A stretch of 64,000 nucleotides of DNA from a virus (Duplodnaviria > Heunggongvirae > Uroviricota > Caudoviricetes). Position numbers and translations under genes: made by a program. Below, piece by piece: positions 13,768 through 63,066 of the stretch. The notes beneath the pieces are model-generated. The model made no database searches. It was given only the letters and a program-made list of their open reading frames with translations, and had not been told where the DNA came from. Where the stretch lies: the IMG/VR virus record IMGVR_UViG_3300045988_145635. The stretch is one strand, 5' to 3'. Each line of letters begins with the position of its first letter. Position 1 is the first letter of the stretch.

Positions 13768-14868
13768 TCACACTGCGCGGAATGCGATTTCGCCAGGTAT
13801 TACTTCACCTTGCCAATACATTTGGGCAGCAACGCGATCTGCGAGGTCACGATAAATAGCCGTAAATTCGCTATCTGGACGACTAATAACGGTTGGTGTT
13901 CCGTTATCCAGATCTTCACGAAGAGAGATATGAAGTGGCATTTGGCCTAACAACTGCGTGTTGTATTTCTCGGCCAGTTTCTGTGCGCCACCGGTGCCAA
14001 AAATTGGCTCGTGATGACCGCAGTTACTGCAAATATGCACACTCATGTTTTCGACGATACCCAGTACCGGCACTTCGACTTTTTCGAACATCACAATGCC
14101 TTTCTTCGCATCGATCAGCGCGATGTCTTGCGGCGTAGTTACCACAACCGCACCAGTTACAGGAATGTTCTGCGCCAGCGTCAACTGAATATCACCAGTG
14201 CCCGGCGGCATATCGAGAACGAGATAGTCCAGATCAGGCCATAGAGTTTCCTGCAACATCTGCATCAGCGCCTTGCTGGCCATCGGTCCACGCCACACCA
14301 TTGCATTGTCGTCGGTGACCAGATAACCAATAGAGTTGGTTGCCAGGCCATGAGACATGATAGGTGCCATGTGAGTACCGTCCGGTGAGGTTGGACGTTG
14401 GTTTTCCGCGCCCAGCATGGTTGGAATTGATGGACCATAGATATCGGCATCCAAAATACCAACTTTCGCACCTTCAGCAGCCAACGCCAGTGCCAGATTT
14501 ACCGCCGTGGAGGATTTACCTACGCCGCCCTTGCCTGAGCTGACGGCGATAATGTTCTTAACGCCATTAATGCCTGGTTGGTTTTTGACGCGCTTAAGCG
14601 TGGCAATGTTGTACGACAGCTTCCAGTCAATAGCCTTTGCGCCAGTGATACGGAGCAGATCACCACTACATTGCTCTTTCAGGTCTTCAAAAGGCTTATT
14701 CCACACGAAAGGCATGATTAGTTCGACATGCAGTGTGTCATCCATCAACGCAACATGGTGTAACGCTTTAAGCGTAGTCAGGTTGTGTTTCAGGGTTGGG
14801 TGCTGAAAATTAGCCAGCGTACCGGCTACCATTGCTCTCAGGGCATCCGGCGATTTGGACTCGCTCAT
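13768..14868 (-). CDS. apbC: Fe-S cluster carrier ATPase ApbC (Mrp)
   Basis: 366 aa; Walker A SSGKGGVGKSS, CxxC (CSNCGH); near-identical over its length to enterobacterial Mrp as I recall it. Confidence 0.93.
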   Translation of the reverse strand: MSESKSPDALRAMVAGTLANFQHPTLKHNLTTLKALHHVALMDDTLHVELIMPFVWNKPFEDLKEQCSGDLLRITGAKAIDWKLSYNIATLKRVKNQPGINGVKNIIAVSSGKGGVGKSSTAVNLALALAAEGAKVGILDADIYGPSIPTMLGAENQRPTSPDGTHMAPIMSHGLATNSIGYLVTDDNAMVWRGPMASKALMQMLQETLWPDLDYLVLDMPPGTGDIQLTLAQNIPVTGAVVVTTPQDIALIDAKKGIVMFEKVEVPVLGIVENMSVHICSNCGHHEPIFGTGGAQKLAEKYNTQLLGQMPLHISLREDLDNGTPTVISRPDSEFTAIYRDLADRVAAQMYWQGEVIPGEIAFRAV

Positions 14869-15025
14869 CCCGTCTCCTTTATTTTAATTTGCGCAATTGT
14901 CGCCTTGTAGTGTACTCCAGCTACGACATTTAATCATTTATGAGAAATGCTGTTATCACATGGCAGACATAAGGCCATTTTGTTACTATCAAGCCCCTTT
15001 TCACTACAAAGAAGTAATGCCTACT

Positions 15026-17059
15026 ATGACCCAAGTCGCGAAGAAAATTCTGGTGACGTGCGCGCTGCCGTACGCTAACGGCTCAATCCACCTCGGCCAT
15101 ATGCTGGAGCACATCCAGGCTGATGTCTGGGTTCGTTACCAGCGAATGCGCGGCCACGAGGTTAATTTCATCTGTGCCGACGATGCCCACGGTACGCCGA
15201 TCATGCTGAAAGCGCAGCAGCTTGGTATCACACCGGAGCAGATGATTGGCGAAATGAGTCAGGAACACCAGACTGATTTCGCAGGCTTTAACATCAGCTA
15301 TGACAACTATCACTCGACGCACAGCGAAGAGAACCGTCAGTTGTCTGAGCTTATCTATACTCGCCTGAAAGAGAACGGTTTTATTAAAAACCGCACTATC
15401 TCTCAGTTGTACGACCCGGAAAAAGGCATGTTCCTGCCGGATCGTTTTGTAAAAGGCACCTGCCCGAAATGTAAAGCGCCAGATCAATACGGCGATAACT
15501 GTGAAGTCTGCGGCGCAACATATAGCCCGACTGAATTGATCGAGCCGAAATCGGTGGTTTCTGGCGCTACCCCGGTAATGCGTGATTCCGAACACTTCTT
15601 CTTTGATCTGCCTTCTTTCAGCGAAATGTTGCAGGCATGGACCCGCAGCGGCGCGTTGCAGGAGCAGGTGGCGAACAAAATGCAGGAATGGTTTGAATCC
15701 GGCCTGCAACAGTGGGATATCTCCCGCGATGCGCCTTACTTCGGTTTTGAAATTCCGGACGCGCCGGGCAAATATTTCTACGTCTGGCTGGACGCGCCGA
15801 TTGGCTACATGGGTTCCTTCAAGAATCTGTGCGACAAGCGCGGCGATACCACCAGCTTCGATGAATACTGGAAGAAAGACTCCACCGCCGAGCTGTACCA
15901 CTTCATCGGTAAAGATATTGTTTACTTCCACAGCCTGTTCTGGCCTGCCATGCTGGAAGGCAGCAACTTCCGCAAGCCGACCAACCTGTTTGTTCACGGC
16001 TATGTGACAGTGAACGGCGCGAAGATGTCCAAGTCTCGCGGTACCTTTATTAAAGCCAGCACCTGGCTGAATCATTTTGACGCCGACAGCCTGCGTTACT
16101 ACTACACTGCGAAACTCTCTTCGCGCATTGATGATATCGATCTCAACCTGGAGGATTTCGTTCAGCGCGTGAATGCCGATATCGTGAACAAAGTGGTTAA
16201 CCTGGCCTCCCGTAATGCAGGCTTTATCAACAAGCGTTTTGACGGCGTGCTGGCAAGCGAACTGGCTGACCCGCAACTGTACAAAACCTTTACTGATGCC
16301 GCTGAAGTGATTGGCGAAGCATGGGAAAGCCGCGAATTTGGTAAAGCTATCCGTGAAATCATGGCATTGGCTGACCTGGCTAACCGCTATGTCGATGAAC
16401 AGGCTCCGTGGGTGGTGGCGAAGCAGGAAGGGCGCGATGCCGATCTGCAGGCGATTTGCTCTATGGGCATTAACCTGTTCCGCGTGCTGATGACGTACCT
16501 GAAACCGGTACTGCCGAAACTGACTGAACGTGCAGAAGCATTCCTGAATACAGAACTGACCTGGGATGGTATCCAGCAACCGCTGCTGGGCCATAAAGTG
16601 AATCCGTTCAAGGCACTGTATAACCGTATCGATATGAAACAGGTGGAAGCACTGGTGGAAGCATCCAAAGAAGAAGTGAAAGCCACAGCCGCACCGGTAA
16701 CTGGCCCACTGGCTGACGACCCGATTCAGGAAACCATCACCTTTGACGACTTCGCCAAAGTTGACCTGCGTGTGGCGCTGATTGAAAACGCGGAGTTTGT
16801 TGAAGGCTCTGACAAACTGCTGCGTCTGACACTGGATCTCGGTGGGGAAAAGCGTAATGTCTTCTCAGGCATCCGTTCTGCTTATCCCGACCCACAGGCA
16901 TTGATTGGTCGTCACACCATTATGGTGGCTAACCTGGCTCCGCGTAAAATGCGCTTCGGTATCTCCGAAGGCATGGTGATGGCTGCTGGCCCCGGCGGGA
17001 AAGATATCTTCCTGTTAAGCCCGGATGCTGGTGCTAAACCTGGCCACCAGGTTAAGTAA
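15026..17059 (+). CDS. metG: Methionine--tRNA ligase
   Basis: HIGH motif (ANGSIHLGH), KMSKS motif, zinc knuckles CPKC/CEVC, C-terminal tRNA-binding domain; start chosen at [11 protein letters not shown] (the ORF-track start at 14897 is an upstream extension). Confidence 0.96.
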
Positions 17060-18379: not shown

Positions 18380-19200
18380 AATCACATCCTTAAATATCAA
18401 TAGGTTACAGTTGTTTATACCAATAAGAAAACAACTGAATAACAGATCAACGAAACATCAACGCTTTCACCCGATTTGGTCTAAAAAATTGACGTTTTCA
18501 CACATCACTGCTTATACCCGTAATTCTACGCAGCAGACAGCGCCACAGCGTCCAATTTTCACCACAGACGACCCAACACACTACCAACAAAAACACACGC
18601 TCAAAATCGTTCCCGTTGCGTTACATAACCATATAAACAACTTATTTTCAGGAATAACAAAACAACTAAATAACACATATGCCATTCCCAAAACAACCAA
18701 CCTCTTTATGGCAGGCTACCGAAAAGACCCACCTCTTCTTCCCAGGCTACCGGACAACCAACCTAACTTTCACAGGCAATCCGAAAACATTCATACGCGC
18801 GATACCCACGACACGCCATTACCCAAACAACGAAGAAACACCTGAACCACTGAAACCCCAACGAAGCCTGTTACCGCAAGGATTCTCTCAATCCCAAAAG
18901 ACACGAAACATAACAATCACGGGAAACGCCATTACCCAATACACGAATAACTACAAAAGCCCTTCACACACTCCAGACAAACAACTCAAACACAATAACG
19001 AAAGGAATCGCCCACCTGCCATTACTCCATACACGGAGAAGAACAATCACCAAAACGACGAGAACACCCCATAGAAGAACCACCGCAAAACGAACGAAAC
19101 CACATACACCGACAGAGAGAACAACACACCCAATTCACCAACAGAAATAGTCGCCGTATAGAACGTTCTGGAAGGAGTGAGCATTAACGCCTATAGAGAG
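18380..19200 (+). other. ORF-poor, strongly strand-asymmetric A+C-rich tract (G- and T-poor on the plus strand)
   Basis: ~0.8 kb dominated by A and C; contains short repeated CAGGCTACCG-like and CCACCTCTT motifs; six-frame ORFs here translate to low-complexity sequence. Confidence 0.55.
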
Positions 19201-19360
19201 GTTGAAACAGATAAAACACGAAGAAAACACAACATGTATAGCGAAGAAGCCAGGTATGTATAAGTGGGGAGGGAAGGAGGGGTGTCGCCTCCTTTTTCGT
19301 ATTTATTCAACTCCTGATTTTATCCCCCGTAACACCCCTACGGTCAGCCTTCGGTCCATA

Positions 19361-19497
19361 CAGGGAAAAGGTTGCATCCCGCTACAGAAACGGCTGGGTT
19401 GCCTTCGGGGAACGGCTGGGGATTTTCAGGGAAACGGTCGAGTTGCCTGTGTGGATTTCGGGAAAAGGCTCGATGCCGGTTCAGGAACGGTGGCGTA
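19361..19497 (+). repeat. Iteron-like array: six ~22-bp-spaced degenerate repeats (GGGAAA[A/C]GG core)
   Basis: Cores at about 19363, 19386, 19408, 19429, 19460, 19483. Confidence 0.6.
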
Positions 19498-19854
19498 CCG
19501 GTATAGCGTGAGGGAGAGTTGCGGCTGTCCACCTGTAATGTGCGGGAAGAAGAGAGGCGCTCACGTGCAGGCGAACTTACTTACCGTTGGACTCCCTCTG
19601 AATGCCCAGCTACAGCGTAATTGTGCCAGACAGTCAGCGGGTCACAATCGATTTCAGTAGGTTTTCGGGGAGAGGATTATTCTGCCCACCAGCCACCTTC
19701 GGCCACTAAATCAGAATAATGTAAAAAGTGTACTCGGTACTGAACCTGAAAACTCACTGCCAAAACCACATTCACCGGAATAAAATCCTTTTTCGCCTGT
19801 GCGTTATTGCGATAATAACACCAACAAGAAAACATGTTGTTTAAGGATTGCTTT

Positions 19855-20184
19855 ATGTTTGCAAATATCGACATCAACCAAATCAAGAAATTAACTCAAA
19901 AAGAGTTTGATCAGTTTTATGAGTTAGAAGGTTGGTCTTCCACTCTGATCAATTCGCGGTGGGTGCTTGAGCTGATGACTCGTGATGACGCACCTGCTTT
20001 GATGATTTGCGACATGGGTGAAGATGCTGACTTTATGGATATGAGCGAATTTTGTGTGGACACATACAACCGCAGCCAGAAGTACTACTTCACATGCGAT
20101 AGCGAAAATGACGTGATTTCTAAGGTCTATCTTCACCTCGTCCAGCATTGGGACGTTCAGGAGTTTCTTGAAGTATTCGAGTAA
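19855..20184 (+). CDS. Hypothetical protein
   Basis: AAGGA RBS; operator motif A at 19825-19846; own terminator at 20193-20213. Confidence 0.5.
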   Translation: MFANIDINQIKKLTQKEFDQFYELEGWSSTLINSRWVLELMTRDDAPALMICDMGEDADFMDMSEFCVDTYNRSQKYYFTCDSENDVISKVYLHLVQHWDVQEFLEVFE

Positions 20185-20338
20185 CCCCAACCAAAGCCAG
20201 CATTGCTGGCTTAACTTAATCTGTAGCCGCAGGGAAGAACCTGCATATCGCCCATGCACCTGATCAATATGCTTTGTAGCCGTTTTCTTACTGGTATTAT
20301 TTACGCCATTGAGAAAACAAGTTGTTTACGGAGTTGTG

Positions 20339-20650
20339 ATGAAAAAATCATTGGTTCTTGGTCTGGACAAAGACCAGAAGAGAAAAGAGAAGCCTGCGCT
20401 GGTTGCTCAATTAACTTTGCTGGACATCGTTGCCAATGGAACCTCTATTCGTCTGTTCCGTGAAACGGCGGTGTCTTTCGATAAAAACACCTTTACTCGT
20501 TATGTAATGAATGTTCGTCGCCAGCGTGGAAAAGGCTGGGTGGCATTTCAAAGAATGTGGCCGGAACATCAGCTCGAACTGGCTTTGATGGAAGTTAACC
20601 GCGTGGCCCAGCAAGAAATTCAGAGAGCATCAGTGATGGCAATAGCCTGA
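20339..20650 (+). CDS. Hypothetical protein
   Basis: ACGGAG RBS; operator motif A at 20307-20333. Confidence 0.5.
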   Translation: MKKSLVLGLDKDQKRKEKPALVAQLTLLDIVANGTSIRLFRETAVSFDKNTFTRYVMNVRRQRGKGWVAFQRMWPEHQLELALMEVNRVAQQEIQRASVMAIA

Positions 20651-20777
20651 TAATGTGCAAGTGGTAATTAGTCGACAGTACGACAGCCCCGCCATCCTTA
20701 CGGGGCTTTTTTTGTATTGTAAGTACATACTTACGATCATAGAATATAAAAATAACCAAAACACTACGGAGAGTGAA

Positions 20778-21173
20778 ATGACCGTTAAACGCGAAAAACT
20801 GACAGTTGATGTTTACTATGCCTCTGAAACCGCCGAAGGTAAGAATGTGGCAAAAATCACCGTTGTTACGTACAACACCGAAACTGGCGCCGAAGTCCAG
20901 GCCAGTACGATCGTGCGTAAAGGTGATGCCTCCGGCGGCGAGTACGAGACTCAATACCAGTCTATTTTCGATGCAACTGACCCGCTGCTGCTGAAAATCG
21001 AGAACTACTTCCGCCAGGTTGATGAAGAGGTGTTTGAAACCATGATGAATATGGTTAACACCGTATTCGCCTCCAGCCTGAATACCAGCACCACCTGGAT
21101 TGGCCAGTACGGTCTGCGCATTACCTCTGGCATTCCTGCCGACACCTTAATCCCTGAAAGCGTATTCGCTTAA
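20778..21173 (+). CDS. Hypothetical protein
   Basis: ACGGAGAGTG spacer before ATG; terminator hairpin upstream (20683-20712) and downstream. Confidence 0.5.
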   Translation: MTVKREKLTVDVYYASETAEGKNVAKITVVTYNTETGAEVQASTIVRKGDASGGEYETQYQSIFDATDPLLLKIENYFRQVDEEVFETMMNMVNTVFASSLNTSTTWIGQYGLRITSGIPADTLIPESVFA

Positions 21174-21290
21174 TCCTCTTTAAATGGCGCGTAAACCGCG
21201 CCATTTTCTTATACCCGATAACAATTTGTTTTCTGCCTTATCTGATTTGTGAAAATGATTTCACTGAAGCAACTTAATAAGGAAACCATC

Positions 21291-21665
21291 ATGGGACTTG
21301 ATATCTATATCGAGACACAGCCTAAAAACGATCTGAATAACGAGGCATCCAGAAAGCGGGTTGCTTACTTCTGTAAGTTCAATGCGCTCGTTGGGTGGAT
21401 GGAGCGCAACGTAGGTGAAGTCGAAAATTGTGAGCTTTTAGAATTAACGATGAATGACATTTGTCTTCTGAAAGCTCATTTGATGCACATAAACGAAAGT
21501 AATTGCGAAGAGTACTTGCCTACTCGGGAAGGTTTTTTCTTCGGCAGTCAGGAGTACGATGAAGGTTACTGGCATGATGTGGGGGAGTTGAAAGAGCTTG
21601 TGGAAGATCTGATTAAGAACCACGACTTTCACAATAACAGACTGACCTTCTGCGCCTGGTGGTAA
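21291..21665 (+). CDS. Hypothetical protein
   Basis: AAGGAAACC RBS; conserved promoter module upstream (21217-21262). Confidence 0.5.
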   Translation: MGLDIYIETQPKNDLNNEASRKRVAYFCKFNALVGWMERNVGEVENCELLELTMNDICLLKAHLMHINESNCEEYLPTREGFFFGSQEYDEGYWHDVGELKELVEDLIKNHDFHNNRLTFCAWW

Positions 21666-21666
21666 A

Positions 21667-21810
21667 TATGGGCGATTTCAAGAAACGCCTGAAGGAAAGA
21701 GCCGAGATGGTCAGAAAGCAAAACGCCTCTTCTGTCATCAGATACGCAAGGCAGTTTAGTCGCAACAACAAATCAGTTGAGGAAAAGATCCTTAGCGTAA
21801 TCGTGCGATA
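21667..21810 (+). CDS. Hypothetical small basic protein (47 aa)
   Basis: ATG 2 nt after the upstream stop; followed by AAGGCCACC-loop-GGTGGCCTT terminator. Confidence 0.3.
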
Positions 21811-22014
21811 ATTATTAAGGCCACCAGCATTGGTGGCCTTAAATGACCATCCTGTTTCCCGCAGGCTAAAACACCAACCTCTTACCTCCAGGCAACCGAC
21901 AAACCCACCTGTTCCCGTCCGGCTACCGCAACTTTCCACTTTGACGCCTTATTCGTACAACGATAATTAACACCAACAAGAAAACAATTTGTTATTTACG
22001 ATAAGGAATTAATC

Positions 22015-22497
22015 ATGAATTTTATCGCTACTGTAAACGCACCCGCACATGGCAATATCGCTGTAACGTTCTCTGACATTGAAAAACGAGTACTTGGTGC
22101 ATGGCGCGACAATGAGACGGTAGAACTGTCAGCACAAGAAAAATGCATTATTGCACGCGACATCATTGGCAATCGTCGTTACTCGCGGGTATTTGAGAAA
22201 GCGTATGTGGTAAATTCTGGATTCGGAACGTTCGTCTTTCCGGTGCGCTCCGGGCGATTCTGCCAGTCCAAGTTGATTGAGTTCGCTACGCAGATTTCTG
22301 TCTGGATTAAAACTCAATCGTCGTTCAAATTTTCCGACGATGAAGCAGTATCGCAGGGGATGCGGATCGCCAACAATGCAATTAAATGCAAAAACATTAC
22401 GTATACCGCTGGCGTTGATACATGGAAACTGTTTTGCGCTAACTTTATGCTGAATGTATACGCAAGCAACCGCATCCACATCCTTGATGGCGTGTAA
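22015..22497 (+). CDS. Hypothetical protein
   Basis: Operator motif A at 21977-21997; terminator hairpin at 22505-22528. Confidence 0.5.
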   Translation: MNFIATVNAPAHGNIAVTFSDIEKRVLGAWRDNETVELSAQEKCIIARDIIGNRRYSRVFEKAYVVNSGFGTFVFPVRSGRFCQSKLIEFATQISVWIKTQSSFKFSDDEAVSQGMRIANNAIKCKNITYTAGVDTWKLFCANFMLNVYASNRIHILDGV

Positions 22498-22546
22498 CTG
22501 AGAAGAGGGCCAGAAACGGCCCTTTCTCTATAGCCACCAGCTGCCG

Positions 22547-22626
22547 CAGGGAAATTTTCAGAAACGGCAAGGAACGCATTCATGAGCCGACGGGAAACGG
22601 CCAGGATTTTTTCGGGAAACGGCTGC
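22547..22626 (+). repeat. Second iteron-like cluster (GGGAAACGG / CAGAAACGG cores)
   Basis: Three to four repeats of the same core as 19361-19497; palindromes TAATCACATACGTGATTA and TGTGATTATGTGAAAAATCACG follow at 22760-22830. Confidence 0.5.
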
Positions 22627-23114
22627 ATTCGCCTTTGTGTAGAAAAAAACATCGGGAAGCTGGTGGAATCCAACCAGCGGTTGTCGGACAGGTGAGCGGG
22701 GAAAATTATGATGACTTTCGTCGCCTGAGACATCCAGATTTCTTTCGTAGCATAATCACATACGTGATTAAGTGGTGTGATTATGTGAAAAATCACGCGC
22801 ACATAATACGCGAGCGGATACGGAACAAAACAAAATGCCGATCCGCGCCGACAAATAAACGCGGATCATAAAGCAAGACTAAAAGCCAATGATTAACCAT
22901 ACACCATAACGCAATATAACGCGTTTTAAGCGCGTTAATGCGCTAAGTAATGGGTATATACTGGTAAGGATATAAAAGCTCGTCTGTGGCGTTATTTTGG
23001 CGCTTATTTTTATGTTGTTGGAGTGAGTCAAAGACAATAAAAAAAGCGCCATCATTGGCGCGTTATGGTGGAAGTATTGGAAACGAAAAAAGCGCCCATA
23101 GTGGGCGCTCGATT

Positions 23115-23616: not shown

Positions 23617-24267
23617 TTACGCTTTGAAAGCATCAGCTAGATAATTGTAGAAATCATTCTTGATAAAGCGATATTGCTGCGTACCAGCTTTCGCGCTCCC
23701 AGCTCCTTTGACTTTTTCAACAAGTCCAAGACGTTCGCAAAGATTGATCAACTGGTTGGCTTGAGTATAGCCAGCGTCCAATTTAATCTCGCACGCTTTT
23801 TTCGCTTCATTCATTAAATCGAAAACAGCGCCATTGGTGAACGTGTCGATCTCGTCGTTAATCATATCGATTAAAGCGAATACACGAGATCCTGACATAT
23901 CAGCGACGGAATAAACACATTTACCAGCTTTAATGGATTTAACCAGATAAACCAGTTTTTCCAGTGAATAACTATTAGTCATTGCATCACGGAAAAATAC
24001 TTCTGGCGCTTGTTTACTTGCTTTGATCGCATAGTAGAAAACAGAGCATAATTTTTCGTCTTCTACTGCGTTTACGACGTTGTTGATGAAGTAAGCAAGT
24101 TTAGTGGTAGCAGCTTGCATATTTGCTTTGTCTGCTTTGGTGTGCGTACCATTTTTATAATGTTCATTATATGTTTGAGTTGCCAGATCTGCTTTTTCGC
24201 GCAGCTCGTCGGATACAATGGATGCAGCTTCAATGATGGATTTTTTAGAAATGATAATGTTAGCCAT
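23617..24267 (-). CDS. Hypothetical protein
   Basis: 216-aa ORF with its own upstream AT-rich leader. Confidence 0.5.
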   Translation of the reverse strand: MANIIISKKSIIEAASIVSDELREKADLATQTYNEHYKNGTHTKADKANMQAATTKLAYFINNVVNAVEDEKLCSVFYYAIKASKQAPEVFFRDAMTNSYSLEKLVYLVKSIKAGKCVYSVADMSGSRVFALIDMINDEIDTFTNGAVFDLMNEAKKACEIKLDAGYTQANQLINLCERLGLVEKVKGAGSAKAGTQQYRFIKNDFYNYLADAFKA

Positions 24268-25223: not shown

Positions 25224-25748
25224 TCAAAAAGGTAAAATTCGTTCAACCCAATCGAAGAAAACAAGAATTTTTCTGCCGTCTTTCAACTTAAGTGTGACTA
25301 GGCAGGCATCAACGCCATCTGACGTTCCCTCAATTTCGCGGCCGTCTGCCATGTAGACCCTTATAGATTGGCCGTTTTGATAAGCCTTGCGACATATCTT
25401 AAAAAAATCACGACGTGATGGCTGGTTGTCTACATAGTCAGGGTGTATTGTTAGTCTCCCTTTGAAATCGTAATCAATGCCATCAATTACGCCTGATTCA
25501 ATTGTGCTAATGCGCTCAAGTGGGAGCCTTATACGATTTTCTTTGTCAAATGGAGTTGGACAAAGGTCAACTTTGTTACGAGATGACATGAGACCATAAA
25601 CGTACATGCAAAACACTTGGCCGTCTTCGAGAGTGACTCTTACAGGAAATTTAGCCCTCCGCCAGAAGAGCAAGGTGCGTTCAGCATGTTCGTAGTCTCG
25701 CGGCCATACTTCAGCCGGTATGCCGTAGGTGATATCTTTCGTCGTCAT
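25224..25748 (-). CDS. Hypothetical protein
   Basis: Start placed at the internal Met so the gene abuts the upstream lipoprotein gene. Confidence 0.5.
   Translation of the reverse strand: MTTKDITYGIPAEVWPRDYEHAERTLLFWRRAKFPVRVTLEDGQVFCMYVYGLMSSRNKVDLCPTPFDKENRIRLPLERISTIESGVIDGIDYDFKGRLTIHPDYVDNQPSRRDFFKICRKAYQNGQSIRVYMADGREIEGTSDGVDACLVTLKLKDGRKILVFFDWVERILPF
25231..25282 (-). repeat. Promoter/leader direct repeat, copy 2 (overlaps the 3' end of gene 25224-25748)
   Basis: ~52 bp near-identical to 24865-24916. Confidence 0.6.
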
Positions 25749-25752
25749 ATCA

Positions 25753-26172
25753 TTATAAAGTGGTTGGCAATATGTCCATTGTACCATCCCAGGTAGTGAA
25801 AACCCGATATGTTTTCGAATCGCCCTGCTTTAGCTTTATTTCTCGTTCCATCCTGGAGGGGTTAAATGCGCAAAGACCTGAACTTTCAATTGATGTCCCA
25901 ACGATCCACTCTCCTTCGTTAAGGTAGAAAGTTGCTTTTTCACCAGGTTCTAGCTTTGCAGCCGTTTCTCCATTGATGAAAATGGAAGCGTTACATGCAG
26001 AACCAACCAGCCCTTTGTCTCGAACTATTGTTAGACTAGACTCATGTGGTGTTTGATATTTAAATATTCTGCTTTGAGGTGCATCCTTTGCCTTTGAAAT
26101 AGATATAGACGAAGACGAACACCCAATTAGTGACGTGGTTAGCATTAGAATCATTAAGTTTTTTGCTTTCAT
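25753..26172 (-). CDS. Lipoprotein (candidate superinfection-exclusion type)
   Basis: Signal peptide with lipobox LIGC; function inferred only from being a prophage-encoded lipoprotein. Confidence 0.5.
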   Translation of the reverse strand: MKAKNLMILMLTTSLIGCSSSSISISKAKDAPQSRIFKYQTPHESSLTIVRDKGLVGSACNASIFINGETAAKLEPGEKATFYLNEGEWIVGTSIESSGLCAFNPSRMEREIKLKQGDSKTYRVFTTWDGTMDILPTTL

Positions 26173-29361: not shown

Positions 29362-29443
29362 AAACCTCTTTCCTTAGTGCCTTTTGTATGTTATTTGGCT
29401 ATTATAATAAGTAAGTGATTACTTAGTGGATTGTAGCAATAAA

Positions 29444-30124
29444 ATGGATGTAAAAATCACGATTTTGCAGGTTGATGTTGCCAACCTTCGCCCGAATACC
29501 TGGAACACCAATTCGGTTGGTGCGCAGAATTTTGAAAAACTGAAAGGTTCTATCGAAAAATTGGGCTTTTTTAAGCCAATTTTGGCTCGTGAACTTGAAG
29601 ATGGATTTTTTGAAATCCTCGGCGGCGAACATCGCTGGCGTGCCGCTATTGAGCAAGGAATTTCAACGGTTCCAGTGCTTTCTGTGGGCAAAATTAGCGA
29701 TGTCGTAGCTAAACAGATGTCACTGGTGGACAACGAGCGATACGGTGAAGACGACCAAATCGCATTGCAACGCTTCATTGAAGAAATTCAGTCAGAACTT
29801 GACTATCAACTGTCTGAAATCGCCCCGTATGACGACGAAATCTCGATGGTTTTAGCAAAAGAGGCGGCAATCGACCTTGAAGCACTGGAGGCGTTGTCTC
29901 GTGGTAGTGATGGGCCTGTCGATACCGACAAACGAGAGAAAACCGAACGTGTGGGGGCGGAACATCAGACCATGCGCTTCAAAGTAACTTTCGATGCGTC
30001 AGATCGTGTTGCAGAAACCATAAAAAACATCATCAAAGAGCAGGCTATTAACACCGGTAATGAAATGGAGAACGCTGGTGAGGCTCTGGTGTGGCTGGTC
30101 GACTACTACAAGGAGCGTATGTAA
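29444..30124 (+). CDS. ParB/Srx-fold (ParB-like nuclease domain) protein 1
   Basis: LRPNTWN and ILGGEHRWRAAIEQG match ParB N-domain boxes; motif B site upstream. Confidence 0.6.
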   Translation: MDVKITILQVDVANLRPNTWNTNSVGAQNFEKLKGSIEKLGFFKPILARELEDGFFEILGGEHRWRAAIEQGISTVPVLSVGKISDVVAKQMSLVDNERYGEDDQIALQRFIEEIQSELDYQLSEIAPYDDEISMVLAKEAAIDLEALEALSRGSDGPVDTDKREKTERVGAEHQTMRFKVTFDASDRVAETIKNIIKEQAINTGNEMENAGEALVWLVDYYKERM

Positions 30125-30792
30125 TGACCAAAAAGTTTGAAATCGTATATCGCGACCCGGCAGATCTTATTCCCTATGAGATGAATGCCAAAAAGCATGA
30201 TGAACAGCAGATCCGAGATCTGGCCGCAGCCATTAAAAAGCGCGGATTTGACCAGCCAATTACGGTCGATAAGAACGACGTAATTATTACTGGCCACGGC
30301 CGCCGTGAGGCTGCAATTTTTGCTGGACTTGAGCGCGTGCCGGTTATTGTTCGCGATGATCTGAGTGATGACGAGGTACGTGCAAAGCGCCTTGAAGATA
30401 ACCGACTTGCCAGCATTGATTACGATGCAATTAAGCTACAGAAAGAGCTTGAGTCGCTTGTTCTGGACGATATCGAGGTTTTCGGCTTCGAAGAGCGTGA
30501 GTTGAATGTTCTCGTTGGCAGTATGACAGAAGAAATGGACACCGACTCGCTAGTTATCGATCTTGGCGAAGAAACTAAACGACAGAAGGATGAACACACC
30601 GAGATCAGTCGTGAAGTTGCAGCGGAAGAAGTACGTGTTGTCGACGTATTGGGCTTTAAAACGCTCCCTGCTGGCTCTGCCATTGTTGTTGGTGATTTGC
30701 TTGCCCATATGGAAGAAATGACGGGAGAAAGCGGGGTAGACGCATTTGTGGCATATGCGGAGAAGATCTCTTCCGGGGAGATGGCTGCATGA
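30124..30792 (+). CDS. ParB/Srx-fold protein 2
   Basis: IITGHGRREAAIFAGLERVPVIV; TAATG coupling to the upstream gene. Confidence 0.6.
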   Translation: MTKKFEIVYRDPADLIPYEMNAKKHDEQQIRDLAAAIKKRGFDQPITVDKNDVIITGHGRREAAIFAGLERVPVIVRDDLSDDEVRAKRLEDNRLASIDYDAIKLQKELESLVLDDIEVFGFEERELNVLVGSMTEEMDTDSLVIDLGEETKRQKDEHTEISREVAAEEVRVVDVLGFKTLPAGSAIVVGDLLAHMEEMTGESGVDAFVAYAEKISSGEMAA

Positions 30793-31454
30793 GCAAATAC
30801 ATCATCAACGTATCGTTTCAGACACGCGTAAATAAAACCACGCGCACGTTGGAAATCGCTGAGTCGTTCGGGCTTGGCCTGGACGAAAAAGAGTGGACGC
30901 TTTACGACAATCTGGAGCTGGAAGTGAAGCAGGGCGATGTGGTGTACATCACCGGCCAATCCGGTTCCGGCAAATCCGTTGTGCTGCGCGAGTTGCAACG
31001 ACAGATGAAGGATGAAGGGCTGTCTGTAGCCTCCATCGATGATTTTACCTTCGATAATGAGGTTAACGTCATCGATCAGTTGGGCAAAACGACCAGCGAT
31101 GCGCTTGGGTTGTTATCTATGGCTGGTCTGAACGATGCATATCTGTTTGTTCGCAAGCCTTCTGAAATGTCAGACGGCCAGAAATATCGTCTCAAGATTG
31201 CCAAACTGATTGAGTCAGGCGCTAAAGTGTGGGCTGCTGACGAGTTCGGCGCTGTTCTCGACCGTGTAACCGCTCAGGTTGTGGCGTCTAACCTCCAGCG
31301 TGCCGCTCGAAAGGTTGGTGCGACGGTAATGGTGGCGACGACTCACGAAGACCTGAAGAACGCGCTGCGCCCGGATATGCAGATCACCAAGCACTACAAA
31401 GAACGCGTGAAGGTGGAATATCACAATGGTAGTCATGATGAGGTTCATTTATGA
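30789..31454 (+). CDS. Minimal ABC-type ATPase
   Basis: Walker A GQSGSGKS, signature-like MSDGQKYRLKIAKL, Walker B VWAADEFGAVLD, H-loop-like ATTHE; ATGA coupling. Confidence 0.6.
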   Translation: MSKYIINVSFQTRVNKTTRTLEIAESFGLGLDEKEWTLYDNLELEVKQGDVVYITGQSGSGKSVVLRELQRQMKDEGLSVASIDDFTFDNEVNVIDQLGKTTSDALGLLSMAGLNDAYLFVRKPSEMSDGQKYRLKIAKLIESGAKVWAADEFGAVLDRVTAQVVASNLQRAARKVGATVMVATTHEDLKNALRPDMQITKHYKERVKVEYHNGSHDEVHL

Positions 31455-32341
31455 CGGACATCATCATTAAACGCTACCGCCCTGAAGAGTTTCCGCGTCA
31501 TCTGGATTTTCTGGAGCGAATGACTGTCACAAAGGGAACTGTAGAGGACTGGCACGCTCTTAAGTCGCTTCACTACAAAACAGACGGCAAACCTTTCGCG
31601 CCAACTTACTATCGCTGCGAACTTGATGACCGTCTGGTGGGCGTCGTGGTTATGGCTTACCCGAAACTACTGTTGGCACCTCGCCACCGCATGTTTCCTA
31701 AGTTGAAACCAACCACTAATACCACCGTGGCTAACCAGTACTGGGGTCGGTACGTGAATAACAACTTTGCGGTGATCAGTCGCTCAGTTGTGGATACTCA
31801 GTATCGTGGCGTAGGCGTCTCTTATCGAATGATTAACCTGGTTAGCAGGATGCATGACCGGCCAATCATTGAGATCCAGTCCTCGATGAGCAAATACAAT
31901 CCCTTCGCCATGAAAGCAGGGTTTAAGTTCATCCGCCCTGAGCGACCGAAGAGCTATGAAAGTGCACTGCGTGTATTCCAGCGCCATTTCCGTTCCGACC
32001 CGGGTGATAACGAGGCGATCGTCAAAGAGTTGTTCGCAATGAGCGAGTCTCGTCGTCGCCGTGCACTGCGTGATCTGGTGGCGGACTACCACAAGAACAG
32101 TTCCCTGGCAAAAGCTGGGCGGAATCGTGGCACGACGATTCAGGACATTGCCGACAGTCTGGTGGACGAGGCCAGCATTGTGAAGCTGCTCAAGGACATT
32201 CACAACCTGAGCTTTACGTCTCCGTTGTATGGTGTGTACCGAAACCCTGACTTTGGTCGTCGACTGCCTGACACGCTGCCACTGCTGGCATTCGACAAAC
32301 AACCTTTGGATAAACCGTTAGAAATTGCTTTACCGGCATAA
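31451..32341 (+). CDS. GNAT-fold acetyltransferase-like protein with C-terminal extension
   Basis: VGVVVMAYP ... TQYRGVGVS ... NPFAMKAGFK resembles the GNAT acetyl-CoA-binding core; ATGA coupling. Confidence 0.45.
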   Translation: MTDIIIKRYRPEEFPRHLDFLERMTVTKGTVEDWHALKSLHYKTDGKPFAPTYYRCELDDRLVGVVVMAYPKLLLAPRHRMFPKLKPTTNTTVANQYWGRYVNNNFAVISRSVVDTQYRGVGVSYRMINLVSRMHDRPIIEIQSSMSKYNPFAMKAGFKFIRPERPKSYESALRVFQRHFRSDPGDNEAIVKELFAMSESRRRRALRDLVADYHKNSSLAKAGRNRGTTIQDIADSLVDEASIVKLLKDIHNLSFTSPLYGVYRNPDFGRRLPDTLPLLAFDKQPLDKPLEIALPA

Positions 32342-60449: not shown

Positions 60450-60701
60450 ATGCTAGGCAGCCTGATGACAAAGCTAAAAGTTGCTTTGATTACGCTGGCT
60501 GCCGTTCTTTTCGTTCTGGTCGGCGCTTACACGATGGGCGGAAATGCGGCGCGACGAGCAATGGAAGAGAAGGCAAAACAGGAAGACAGAAAACGACTTC
60601 AAAACACAGTGAAAGTGGTGAATGAGACGAGCAGTAAAATACGTCAGAAAGATGCTTCTGCCGTTCATCGTGAGTTGTATGATAAGTGGGTGCGTCATTA
60701 A
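60450..60701 (+). CDS. i-spanin (Rz-like)
   Basis: N-terminal TM (VALITLAAVLFVLVGAY) plus charged periplasmic region; typical size. Confidence 0.65.
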   Translation: MLGSLMTKLKVALITLAAVLFVLVGAYTMGGNAARRAMEEKAKQEDRKRLQNTVKVVNETSSKIRQKDASAVHRELYDKWVRH

Positions 60702-60837
60702 ACCACAAACAGCCAGCGTGTTGTTCTGCGATGGGGCTGAGCCTATCTATATCAGCAATAATGATGTAATGACTGAAGAAACCGAACGCCAAATCCTTTT
60801 TCACAATACGATGGGAGAGAGGGTTTGTGGTTGGTGA
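60652..60837 (+). CDS. o-spanin (Rz1-like lipoprotein), overlapping the i-spanin gene in the +1 frame
   Basis: MLLPFIVSCMISGC lipobox; starts inside the Rz-like gene. Confidence 0.55.
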   Translation: MLLPFIVSCMISGCVIKPQTASVLFCDGAEPIYISNNDVMTEETERQILFHNTMGERVCGW

Positions 60838-60869
60838 TGTCGAAGTTCCCCTCAAATGAGGGGAACACA

Positions 60870-61391
60870 TTATTCTTCGAACAATTTTTCGATAGATTTT
60901 GTAGGATAGAACAAAGAACGCTCGTTGTTACCAACCAGCTGGATAAAGCCTAAACTTTTATAAAACGCCTTGGCTTTGTCATTTAACGCCTCAACGAAAA
61001 GTCCATGAATGCCTACAGCAAGAGATGCATTGTACACAACGCGCATTGCATGTGTTACAAGCATTGAGCCAAATCCTTGACCTTGAAGGGACTTGTCCAA
61101 AGCCAGCCTACCCAAAGTAACACTTGGAACATTCCGATAAGGAACCTTCTTTTGTTTGCTTCTTGAAGGTAAGGACTCCTTTTCAAAACAACTACCTGAC
61201 AAAGTGTAATATCCTAACACTTTTGGCCTTTCTTCTTGAGTGCAAAGCACATAAGCACGAAGAATTTTTCCCTCATGCTGCCTTTTTAAGTGGTTGGCTA
61301 AAAAGGCGTTTAGTGACTCTTCGCCGCAATCAAAACCGTTTAGATCATAATCTTTCTCTCCAGAGAAAATCTCTATCGTTGTATTGCTCAC
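60870..61391 (-). CDS. GNAT-family acetyltransferase toxin (TacT/AtaT/ItaT-like)
   Basis: 173 aa; GNAT core (QGQGFGSMLV); paired with an upstream DUF1778-type gene. Confidence 0.7.
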   Translation of the reverse strand: MSNTTIEIFSGEKDYDLNGFDCGEESLNAFLANHLKRQHEGKILRAYVLCTQEERPKVLGYYTLSGSCFEKESLPSRSKQKKVPYRNVPSVTLGRLALDKSLQGQGFGSMLVTHAMRVVYNASLAVGIHGLFVEALNDKAKAFYKSLGFIQLVGNNERSLFYPTKSIEKLFEE

Positions 61392-61398
61392 GAGTAAA

Positions 61399-61668
61399 CT
61401 ACTCCATGCTTTTCAGACGATCAGCAGCTCGTTTCAGCTTGTCGTTCGGTGCCGGAGGATTGCTTATAGCGTCCATAACCAGATTCCAGGACTCTTCACT
61501 CAGAACCAGTCTTCGATGTTGCTCTATAACTTTCACGGCACGTTCAGATGCACTGCTAACCATAAACTGAGTAATGCTCTGGTTAGACATTGCGGCAGCT
61601 TCCTCGATGATGCTTTTATCGTCATCGGTTAATCTCAAATCGATGCGCTGCTTTTTTAGTGCTGACAT
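61399..61668 (-). CDS. DUF1778-type RHH antitoxin (TacA-like)
   Basis: ~89 aa from the AGGAGG-preceded ATG; immediately upstream of the GNAT gene on the same strand. Confidence 0.65.
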   Translation of the reverse strand: MSALKKQRIDLRLTDDDKSIIEEAAAMSNQSITQFMVSSASERAVKVIEQHRRLVLSEESWNLVMDAISNPPAPNDKLKRAADRLKSME

Positions 61669-61934
61669 GTATTCCTCCTGATGGCCGTGATGTAGGAAGG
61701 CCATCAATCTCCTCTGTTCAAACTGAGTTTTCGACTCAAAAATTACTTTAAAAGGCTATAGCCCATTACGTGTGCATTATCAAATTGTGTACGGCATATC
61801 ACCGTACTTGTAATATAGAGGTCATTGTTACTTTTTTCAACAGACAAATACAAGCTATGATTGCCAATTGTTAATCACAACCTACCATTTAACCTTTACA
61901 CCGCAGCCGTAGGCATTTAGGCTATATCACATAT

Positions 61935-61986: not shown

Positions 61987-62655
61987 ATGACCAAGATCTT
62001 TGTGGTTGGCGGCACAAAGGGCGGGCCTGGCAAATCCACCGTTGCCCAGCAAATTGCCGTTTGCCTTAAAGTCAAAAAGAAGAAGAAGGTTTATATCACT
62101 GATATAGATATTCAGCGCACGACAACAAGCTGGTGTGAAGACCGTCGACAGAACGAAGACCTTGAGCTGATTCCTTTTGCATACGTTCAGGATGACATCA
62201 TTAAGCACCTAAAATCGCTTCAGGGTAGAGCTGAGTATGTAGTGGTAGATGCTGGTGGCTTTGACTCCGAAATTCAGCGACAAGCGATGCTGATGGCCGA
62301 CGTTATCATTATCCCGCTTCGTCCTAAGCGTCGTGATTTGAAATCTCTGCGTGACATTGATCCTATTATCGACAATGTTCGTAATGTAAACGATAAAGTG
62401 AAGGTCCGCGCGGTCATGAACCAGTGCCCGGCTTTGCCATCACAAGTGTCTCGCATTCTGGCGGCTAAAGAGATTGTTGAGACGTTTGGCATCGAGTCTG
62501 CGCCAGTCAATCTATATAACCGCAACGTCTATGATGATGCGGAAGAGTCTGGTCGTTCTATCTTTGAAATGACCGGTAGCGAGCGCGACAAAAAGGCGGA
62601 AGCCGAGTTTGAAGAATTTGTAGATTATCTGTTGAGTCTGGAGGAAAAAGAATAA
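61987..62655 (+). CDS. ParA/ParF-type partition ATPase
   Basis: Deviant Walker A GGTKGGPGKST; 222 aa. Confidence 0.8.
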   Translation: MTKIFVVGGTKGGPGKSTVAQQIAVCLKVKKKKKVYITDIDIQRTTTSWCEDRRQNEDLELIPFAYVQDDIIKHLKSLQGRAEYVVVDAGGFDSEIQRQAMLMADVIIIPLRPKRRDLKSLRDIDPIIDNVRNVNDKVKVRAVMNQCPALPSQVSRILAAKEIVETFGIESAPVNLYNRNVYDDAEESGRSIFEMTGSERDKKAEAEFEEFVDYLLSLEEKE

Positions 62656-63014
62656 TGTCCATGAAAATGGGTGACCTAGCAAAGCGCAAAGAGCCTGATG
62701 CACCGGCTAAGAACACAACTCCTTTGCGCCAACCAGTCAGACCACAGGGACGCCCGACTCGTGGCAAAGAGAAAATTAAAAGCCGCACAATGTCACTGGA
62801 GGACGAATACTTCGAACTGCTGGAGATGATGAAGTTCATCCCTCGCTTCGAGAAGTTCACTCGTTCTGACGTGATTCGTGCTGCTATTTTCCATCTTGCG
62901 GAGAAGACACCGCAGGAAATCGAGGACATCGTGAAACTTAACGAGGCGATCACCGCTGCCGATGTCACGATGCGTACCGATGAAATCAAACGAGAGTTGA
63001 TGAAGAAAGGTTAA
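62655..63014 (+). CDS. Small RHH-type centromere-binding protein (ParG-like)
   Basis: TAATG-coupled to the ParA-like gene; basic N-terminal tail plus C-terminal beta-alpha-alpha pattern. Confidence 0.55.
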   Translation: MSMKMGDLAKRKEPDAPAKNTTPLRQPVRPQGRPTRGKEKIKSRTMSLEDEYFELLEMMKFIPRFEKFTRSDVIRAAIFHLAEKTPQEIEDIVKLNEAITAADVTMRTDEIKRELMKKG

Positions 63015-63018
63015 AAAT

Positions 63019-63051
63019 CATGCATTGGCGCGTACATTGCGCCAATGCATG
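63019..63051. terminator. Bidirectional hairpin terminator between convergent genes
   Basis: 13-bp perfect stem CATGCATTGGCGC / GCGCCAATGCATG. Confidence 0.55.
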
Positions 63052-63066
63052 AGTACAATGTCAGTT

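Follow-up and report, generated by a model that had tools for sequence, protein, structure and literature searches.

The 64,000-nucleotide stretch of DNA analysed here (the window; IMG/VR virus record IMGVR_UViG_3300045988_145635, Caudoviricetes) contains two arrays of short direct repeats, array 1 (19361-19497) and array 2 (22547-22663), which are real, family-specific, paralogous, phased, conserved and non-coding cis elements, distinct from the iterons of the plasmid initiator RepA. The arrays probably act as phased binding platforms on DNA. More tentatively, they may be bound by a protein of the element itself, most likely a 216-aa winged-helix-like protein, and may function in the lytic programme, be it as an origin independent of RepA, an origin enhancer or a replication-control pair. 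Judged by sequence identity, the window is part of a widespread phage-plasmid of the SSU5/pHCM2 type: the 4 kb surrounding the arrays share 98% identity with Escherichia phage Cyrano (OV696614), an element also recorded as plasmid pLF82 in E. coli LF82, and 97-98% identity with ~175 E. coli plasmids of 100-115 kb each, with Salmonella phage SSU5 and Klebsiella phage-plasmids as more distant relatives. This identity and the IncFIB typing of the element corroborate the phage-plasmid lifestyle proposed in the initial annotation of the window. Position 19000 of the window corresponds to 94971 of Cyrano, and the window spans Cyrano from ~76 kb over the record end to ~31.6 kb. Wild-type Cyrano has a copy number of 5.5 per cell (PMC9928086).

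The six degenerate repeats of array 1 as well as the second cluster with the common core, bracketing five cassette open reading frames (ORFs), were found as initially annotated. All copies are located on the + strand:

19361-19497 (+): array 1, six direct repeats with the core G(G)GAAA(C/A)GG
19363-19371 (+): array 1, unit 1, GGGAAAAGG
19387-19393 (+): array 1, unit 2, (CA)GAAACGG
19407-19415 (+): array 1, unit 3, GGGGAACGG
19429-19437 (+): array 1, unit 4, GGGAAACGG
19460-19468 (+): array 1, unit 5, GGGAAAAGG
19484-19490 (+): array 1, unit 6, (CA)GGAACGG
22547-22663 (+): array 2, three to five copies in the same orientation as array 1
22547-22554 (+): array 2, truncated unit, CAGGGAAA
22561-22567 (+): array 2, unit GAAACGG
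22592-22600 (+): array 2, unit GGGAAACGG
22614-22622 (+): array 2, unit GGGAAACGG
22654-22663 (+): array 2, degenerate unit, GGGAAGCTGG

Start-to-start distances in array 1 are 22, 22, 22, 31 and 22 bp, in agreement with the previously noted spacing of ~22 bp, i.e., two helical turns. The total number of motifs is ordinary, with 34 copies of the loose core GRAAMGG on both strands of the window as compared to 32 in shuffled sequences; the clustering alone is unusual. Six copies fall within 130 bp (mean maximum of 1.7 and highest value of 4 in 300 dinucleotide-preserving shuffles), and five adjacent pairs are spaced by 21-23 bp (shuffle mean 0.03). As paralogues, the two arrays resemble each other outside the core as well, with unit variants in a common order. 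Their local alignment in SSU5 scores 42 (shuffles 17 +/- 2.2), the unit order common to both being CAGGGAAA, TTCAGAAACGG, GGGAAAMGGCYRG and TTTTNRGGGAAACGG, and both arrays end in the related sequence GTAnAGA...GAGCGrGGGA.

Conservation was analysed in Cyrano, PhiR41_1, SSU5 and two Klebsiella phages, and then in 36 region-spanning loci from IMG/VR and a phage collection. Absence of the repeats from related elements, named in the initial annotation as a finding that would speak against them, was not observed in these 36 loci, all of which have both arrays in unchanged order and orientation, with E. coli, Salmonella, Klebsiella, Kluyvera and metagenomes represented among the relatives, and they recur with unchanged word in two distant contigs, one from K. 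quasipneumoniae (L099) and one from a metagenome (L102), where the proteins neighbouring the arrays are only 27-62% identical to their counterparts in the window. The copy number in the relatives is 3-6 for array 1, often with the spacing 22/22/22/31/22, and 3-4 for array 2. The majority base is more frequent in the core than in the spacer, both in array 1 (0.83 vs 0.67) and in array 2 (0.96 vs 0.85). In a Serratia-like relative (L100), the 18.6 kb of contig examined contain only one or two cores, which are decayed, and array 2 is missing there.

Array 1 was detected in 243 of 5,426 complete E. coli genomes, always on a plasmid and never on the chromosome. In plasmid pFra of Y. pestis (L223, NZ_CP151628; 5856-7620), a copy of IS1541 abuts a large deletion that has removed array 1 together with adjoining A+C-rich DNA and the greater part of the island that separates the arrays; the gene for a 160-aa protein and an intact array 2 are retained, and the plasmid persists. 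A pattern scan of IMG/VR yielded SSU5-like loci only, besides chance or coding matches, and outside the SSU5-like family the pattern matches listed were coding coincidences and microsatellites only. A scan of GTDB with a three-core pattern gave at least 120 matches; among the matches listed, heptamer and other tandem repeats prevailed, and the only true arrays were those of SSU5-like plasmids of Kluyvera. A chromosomal 22-bp tandem repeat (L222) has GGGAAACGGCTGGGG in common with the arrays, which is probably a coincidence. In a literature search on Cyrano, SSU5, pHCM2 and pMT1, no account of these repeats was found; the array element appears to be undescribed so far.

In Cyrano, an ORF (CYRAN_104) is annotated across array 1. 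A coding repeat is ruled out by the 22-nt period together with a 22-nt indel, PhiR41_1 having exactly one 22-nt unit fewer in array 1, and no feature was annotated under array 1 by the Prokaryotic Genome Annotation Pipeline (PGAP) in the 243 E. coli genomes.

As tandem direct repeats phased at ~22 bp, the arrays have the layout of iterons, and six phased 22-bp direct repeats with a second cluster recall the incC-repA-incA organization. Likewise, the iteron arrays of F ori2/incC, P1 incC/incA, R6K gamma ori and RepFIB comprise four to six direct repeats with ~22-bp phasing, and a second cluster of the same word a few kb away, with conserved small genes in between, is also a trait of theta replicons. 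However, the Rep_3/RepA protein of this family uses a different word at another locus. The RepA origin is the only origin annotated on the element, and the repA gene is located at 60633-61688 of Cyrano, ~15 kb ahead of the window start, which explains why no Rep initiator had been recognised in the window. Iterons of the CTATAGTGGAT/CACTATAG type lie on either side of repA, and DnaA boxes are present close by. The CTATAGTGGAT-type word occurs nowhere in the whole 64 kb window, and GGGAAACGG forms no cluster at the RepA locus. Furthermore, no Rep_3 or other Rep family member is encoded among the proteins neighbouring the arrays, no DnaA box (TTWTNCACA) is present within 3 kb of array 1 and a single one (22784, - strand) 120 bp past array 2, no 40-bp stretch of at least 70% AT adjoins the arrays as a potential unwinding element, and only ~9-12 of each 22 bp are conserved, all of which differs from the iteron arrays of theta replicons. 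The RepA-type origin initially proposed could therefore not be sustained; RepA iterons were rejected on account of the different word and the separate RepA locus, and a function of the arrays as such an origin or as an incA-like copy-control locus is extremely improbable.

Instead, the preferred reading is that of phased sites for an element-encoded protein. With sites about two helical turns apart, all copies would lie on one face of the helix, where a sequence-specific protein kept across the SSU5/pHCM2/pMT1 family could bind cooperatively. Two nucleoprotein complexes in direct orientation would then bracket a variable island of early genes and, in analogy to iteron pairs (P4 ori/crr, P1 incC/incA, R6K), could come together, with the DNA between them forming a loop. 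The arrays may serve the phage's own replisome in the lytic phase; genes for a helicase, a primase, Pol III alpha, a ligase, SSB and recombination proteins are all present on the element itself. The bipartite origin of phage P4 (ori and crr, recognized by the alpha primase-helicase) is comparable in consisting of two one-word clusters a few kb apart on a phage/plasmid hybrid, with looping possible, but P4 octamers occur in both orientations and have a known initiator, whereas only a candidate binder can be named for the present arrays. The island and the genes relevant to the search for a binding protein are:

19834-22497 (+): variable island enclosed by the two arrays, with small genes that are individually preceded by copies of a promoter/operator-like element
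20339-20650 (+): 103-aa basic protein (pI 10.5, PHROG 5125)
22015-22497 (+): 160-aa basic protein (pI 9.2, PHROG 1641), always immediately 5' of array 2
23617-24267 (-): 216-aa protein (PHROG 1513), convergent on array 2, candidate binder

The 216-aa protein is the best-kept neighbour of the arrays (84-89% identity among the E. coli, Salmonella and Klebsiella types), and its gene is always present downstream on the - strand where the locus reaches far enough. In all lineages, L099 among them, the stretch YTQANQLINLCERLGLVEK-KG...QQY at its C-terminus hardly varies, in parallel with the unchanged motif. Residues ~146-202 yielded sub-threshold Pfam matches to three winged-helix families, namely FtsK_gamma (E 0.025), DUF2250 (E 0.02-0.17) and Linker_histone (E 0.16-0.33). 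By these sequence features, the protein is the best candidate binder, with a C-terminus that appears winged-helix-like. In the transcriptome of LF82 lysogens (PMC9928086, S1 Table), its gene is expressed at floor level, as is CYRAN_103 in the A+C-rich region; expression of the array 1 region (CYRAN_104) is low and similar to that of the two genes following it, and the 160-aa gene is modestly expressed. The silence of the candidate gene in lysogens and the persistence of the Y. pestis plasmid without array 1 lead to the inference of a role in the lytic programme.

Several observations weigh against this assignment. The winged-helix signal is below every Pfam threshold, the 216-aa protein has no sequence match in the PDB, the motif is absent from the promoter region of its gene, and the Serratia-like relative retains the gene while its arrays have decayed. 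Hallmarks of an origin such as DnaA boxes and a GATC cluster are missing, with only a 28-bp moderately AT-rich block present; indeed, the region 18446-19908 is free of GATC and neither array has a GATC cluster. Mapping of an origin by GC skew was uninformative, the cumulative skew rising almost monotonically. Moreover, a motif that stays fixed amid diverging phage proteins could be bound by a host factor, and short complementary arms are found around many cores, at a frequency slightly above that of the controls, which is in keeping with an action as RNA.

Other proteins were considered as binders and set aside. The 103-aa protein has only a weak resemblance to AP2 or integrase arm domains and was not detected by tblastn in L099. 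The 160-aa protein belongs to a family limited to SSU5/pHCM2/pMT1-type elements, with 19 matches among 1.84 billion representatives and homologous genes on 804 PLSDB plasmids (55 from Yersinia), and contigs without array 2 (Serratia-like L100/L101) lack its gene as well. Its candidacy is weakened, since the AlphaFold2 model (pLDDT 88) has no fold match, remote homologues were not found, and the L099 counterpart (29% identity) does not retain the basic residues despite the unchanged motif. The small terminase TerS shows weaker conservation than the motif.

A dispersed centromere for the type Ib ParA/ribbon-helix-helix (RHH) pair encoded at 61987-63014, comparable to parC1/parC2 of pB171 or to N15, is quite unlikely, even though RHH partition proteins bind direct repeats and N15 has dispersed centromeres. 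In support of such a function, no repeat-type centromere was found by parA, the surroundings of which contain only an upstream operator palindrome and a downstream 14-bp inverted repeat, and the RHH gene is expressed in lysogens. In type Ib centromeres (pB171 parC1/parC2; TP228 parH), two direct-repeat clusters likewise flank a small cassette, and small basic proteins are encoded between the present arrays. However, no NTPase gene is located between the arrays, the ParA/RHH operon is ~39 kb away, and the 22-bp period differs from the contiguous 4-11-bp units of these centromeres, a core of 9-12 bp per 22 bp being unusual for RHH sites. The 280 bp upstream of the parA start (61987) and the downstream flank lack any GRAAMGG cluster, whereas type Ib centromere-binding proteins normally autoregulate the parA promoter. 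The Serratia-like relative L100 encodes a ParA of 65% identity and an RHH partner of 61% with a near-identical core (SRTMSLEDEYFELLEMMK, then FTRSDVIRAAI), despite its decayed array 1 cores and the lack of array 2 in the contig part examined; finally, pFra is maintained with array 2 alone. From the initially proposed centromere, the repeats and their two clusters thus remain, while the assignment to partition is weakened by the motif-free parA promoter, the RHH protein kept in the Serratia-like relative and the loss of array 1 from pFra. Together with the floor-level expression, the same observations make a function in the plasmid mode, be it as a centromere or in RepA copy control, less likely than one in the lytic phase. 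The inverted repeat mentioned above is a perfect one (TCATGCATTGGCGC-N7-GCGCCAATGCATGA, 63018-63052), and is located directly after the ParA/RHH operon without a T-run; it could represent a parS-like site, but has no counterpart behind the orthologous operon in the Serratia-like relative.

The arrays are embedded in conserved flanking elements:

18400-19250 (+): ~0.85 kb of A+C-rich/G+T-poor non-coding DNA adjoining array 1, link to the arrays unproven
19271-19297 (+): terminator-like hairpin before array 1, GGGAAGGAGGGGTGTCGCCTCCTTTTT, conserved, from a terminator scan
19495-19520 (+): conserved right end of array 1, CCGGTATAGCGTGAGGGAG
22507-22529 (+): terminator-like hairpin before array 2, GGGCC-AGAAAC-GGCCC-TTTCTCT

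Array 1 begins 64 bp past the first hairpin, to which it is linked by the conserved block ATTTATTCAA...CCCCCGTAAC. The second hairpin directly follows the stop codon of the 160-aa gene, 18 bp ahead of array 2, and both sides of its stem are altered in SSU5 and Klebsiella (GGGCC/GGCCC to GGGGC/GCCCC). At the right end of array 2, the relatives have a related GTAGAAA..GAGCGGGAGA block.

This arrangement bears on a possible role of the arrays in the control or delimitation of transcription, in which a regulator bound at both edges of the island would activate, silence or insulate its early genes, as do dispersed operators and the silencing sites of partition proteins in P1 and N15. The arrays are always located at both borders of an island of varying content, a terminator precedes each of them, a conserved CGGTATAG 11 nt past the end of array 1 may represent a -10 element, and the island genes, several of which rise under stress in LF82 (PMC9928086, S1 Table), have their own operator-bearing promoters. 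However, neither strand contains a convincing -35/-10 pair that is conserved, and the TATAG block is missing in one sub-lineage (L033, L037, L046, L086). Array 2 faces only convergent terminators, with no promoter space and no + strand gene downstream, which argues for a non-transcriptional role. Overall, control of the island from the arrays is regarded as unlikely. Leftward or sigma-32-like promoters considered at array 1 are not conserved in the alignments, and the density of Chi sites by the arrays is ordinary for E. coli.

The arrays could also act as RNA, i.e., as CsrB-like rows of GGA sites for the host protein CsrA, which would make them a decoy, or else a leader or 3' untranslated region (UTR) under CsrA control. 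A spacing of ~22 nt suits bridging by a CsrA dimer, and an invariant host factor such as CsrA would explain the fixed motif amid diverging phage proteins. The density of about one GGA unit per 17-22 nt is a feature shared with the CsrB/CsrC/RsmZ RNAs, and the E. coli CsrB unit TTTCAGGGAAAGGCT (L224, E. coli K-12 csrB nt 72-86) nearly equals the array 1 units TTTCGGGAAAAGGCT and TTTCAGGGAAACGGT, being one or two bases off positions 19426-19440 and 19457-19471 of the window. A matrix derived from 22 GGA sites of CsrB matches five times in array 1 and three times in array 2, as compared to 0.8 matches per 180 nt elsewhere in the window. In 70% of 122 distinct units, the core is enclosed by Watson-Crick arms (minimum 3 bp), vs 59 +/- 3% with upstream arms swapped among units, an excess that is overstated by the mutual relatedness of the units. 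On the other hand, the core is longer than GGA, its best-kept part is AAACGG, and one conserved unit (CAGAAACGG) has no GGA in both arrays. Promoter room before array 2 and terminators after either array are lacking, as is the promoter/terminator frame and abundant lysogen transcript of the CsrB-type RNAs; lysogen reads are low at array 1 and at the floor upstream. No Rfam match was obtained at gathering score or E <= 10, nor any similarity to chromosomal csrB (E <= 10), and RNAalifold (25 and 20 non-redundant homologues, both strands) predicted the two terminator hairpins as the only consensus structures. An action as RNA is accordingly considered decidedly unlikely. The specific variant in which the arrays are transcribed at induction through weak terminators, to yield a CsrB-like decoy or a CsrA-responsive element, is very unlikely; if true, a mobile element present in ~4.5% of complete E. 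coli genomes as well as in plasmids of S. Typhi and Y. pestis would tap the host Csr network.

Phased direct repeats are also bound by small terminases, and the arrays might be considered as recognition (pac) sites, at which TerS wraps the repeats to begin headful packaging. The element possesses an SPP1-type portal and terminase, which makes headful packaging likely, and the sites are polar, confined to one strand and located in poorly transcribed DNA. In contrast to the usual position of pac in or beside terS, however, the arrays are ~13 kb and ~10 kb upstream of terS (Cyrano 135-767; array 1 at 95.3 kb) and occur in two copies. In L099, TerS is 59% identical with an unaligned N-terminus while the motif is unchanged. 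A packaging function is highly improbable, and binding by an element-encoded protein in the context of lytic replication is preferred.

The island between the arrays extends over 1.5-4.2 kb in the relatives (distance between the arrays). Only the 103-aa and 160-aa genes are constant in the 36 close relatives, and the smallest islands (L037, L046) consist of these two alone. Cyrano and many E. coli plasmids contain ~470 bp extra (window ~21670-22010 vs Cyrano 97639-98253), which hold CYRAN_109 and CYRAN_110. CYRAN_109 is among the most highly expressed genes of Cyrano in lysogens (PMC9928086), and the absence of this DNA from the window illustrates the turnover of cassettes between the arrays.

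Many small + strand genes have a dispersed palindrome, AAACAAnTTGTT(T), ~17-48 nt ahead of their start codon (3762, 4491, 17144, 17195, 19830, 20315, 21220, 21982, 32761 and 61939). The palindrome is contained in a repeated, promoter-like block of ~55 nt and precedes each island gene as well as parA. It resembles the dispersed operators of a repressor acting across the genome, such as C1 of P1, or else a shared 5'-UTR element.

The A+C-rich DNA at 18400-19250 has a GC skew of down to -0.54 and an AT skew of up to +0.64, and is the most skewed kilobase of the Cyrano genome. It carries no PGAP annotation and contains four repeats of the GCCATTACCCA type (18676, 18810, 18923, 19013), which recur in the distant L102. 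The region is conserved in SSU5 and L102; in L099, the last ~160 nt before the terminator, the sole part read there, are purine-rich instead. A transcript of this region would be unstructured and an ideal Rho-loading site.

Further genes were noted in the window. A full-length homologue of FljA, the repressor of phase-1 flagellin in Salmonella, is encoded at 25224-25787 on the - strand (PF03614, E 4e-80) and in most relatives with a sufficiently long locus, and is missing from the Serratia-like contigs; the phage-plasmid may thereby interfere with flagellin expression of its host. An operon directly upstream of the terminase genes (~29440-32330) encodes two ParB_N proteins, an ABC-type ATPase, a 297-aa protein and others, the ATPase (86%) and the 297-aa protein (81%) being among the best-kept genes in comparison to L099. 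The divergent order of apbC (mrp) and metG is presumably that of the E. coli chromosome. Such a pair is present on the phage-plasmid (Cyrano RefSeq annotation; L002 2768-6059, corresponding to ~13770-17059 of the window), a resemblance that points to a captured host locus.

Arrays of phased direct repeats are well known as elements, and the present pair therefore represents a solid lead rather than a surprise. Phage-plasmids of the SSU5/pHCM2/pMT1 type are common in clinical Enterobacteriaceae and carry resistance genes, and their cis-acting DNA is uncharted beyond RepA and ParA. A family-wide, so far unannotated pair of arrays provides a handle on the switch from plasmid to lytic replication or on the control of the island. 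If the arrays represent a second origin or control locus, this would have consequences for replicon typing, for the prediction of incompatibility and copy number, and for phage engineering.

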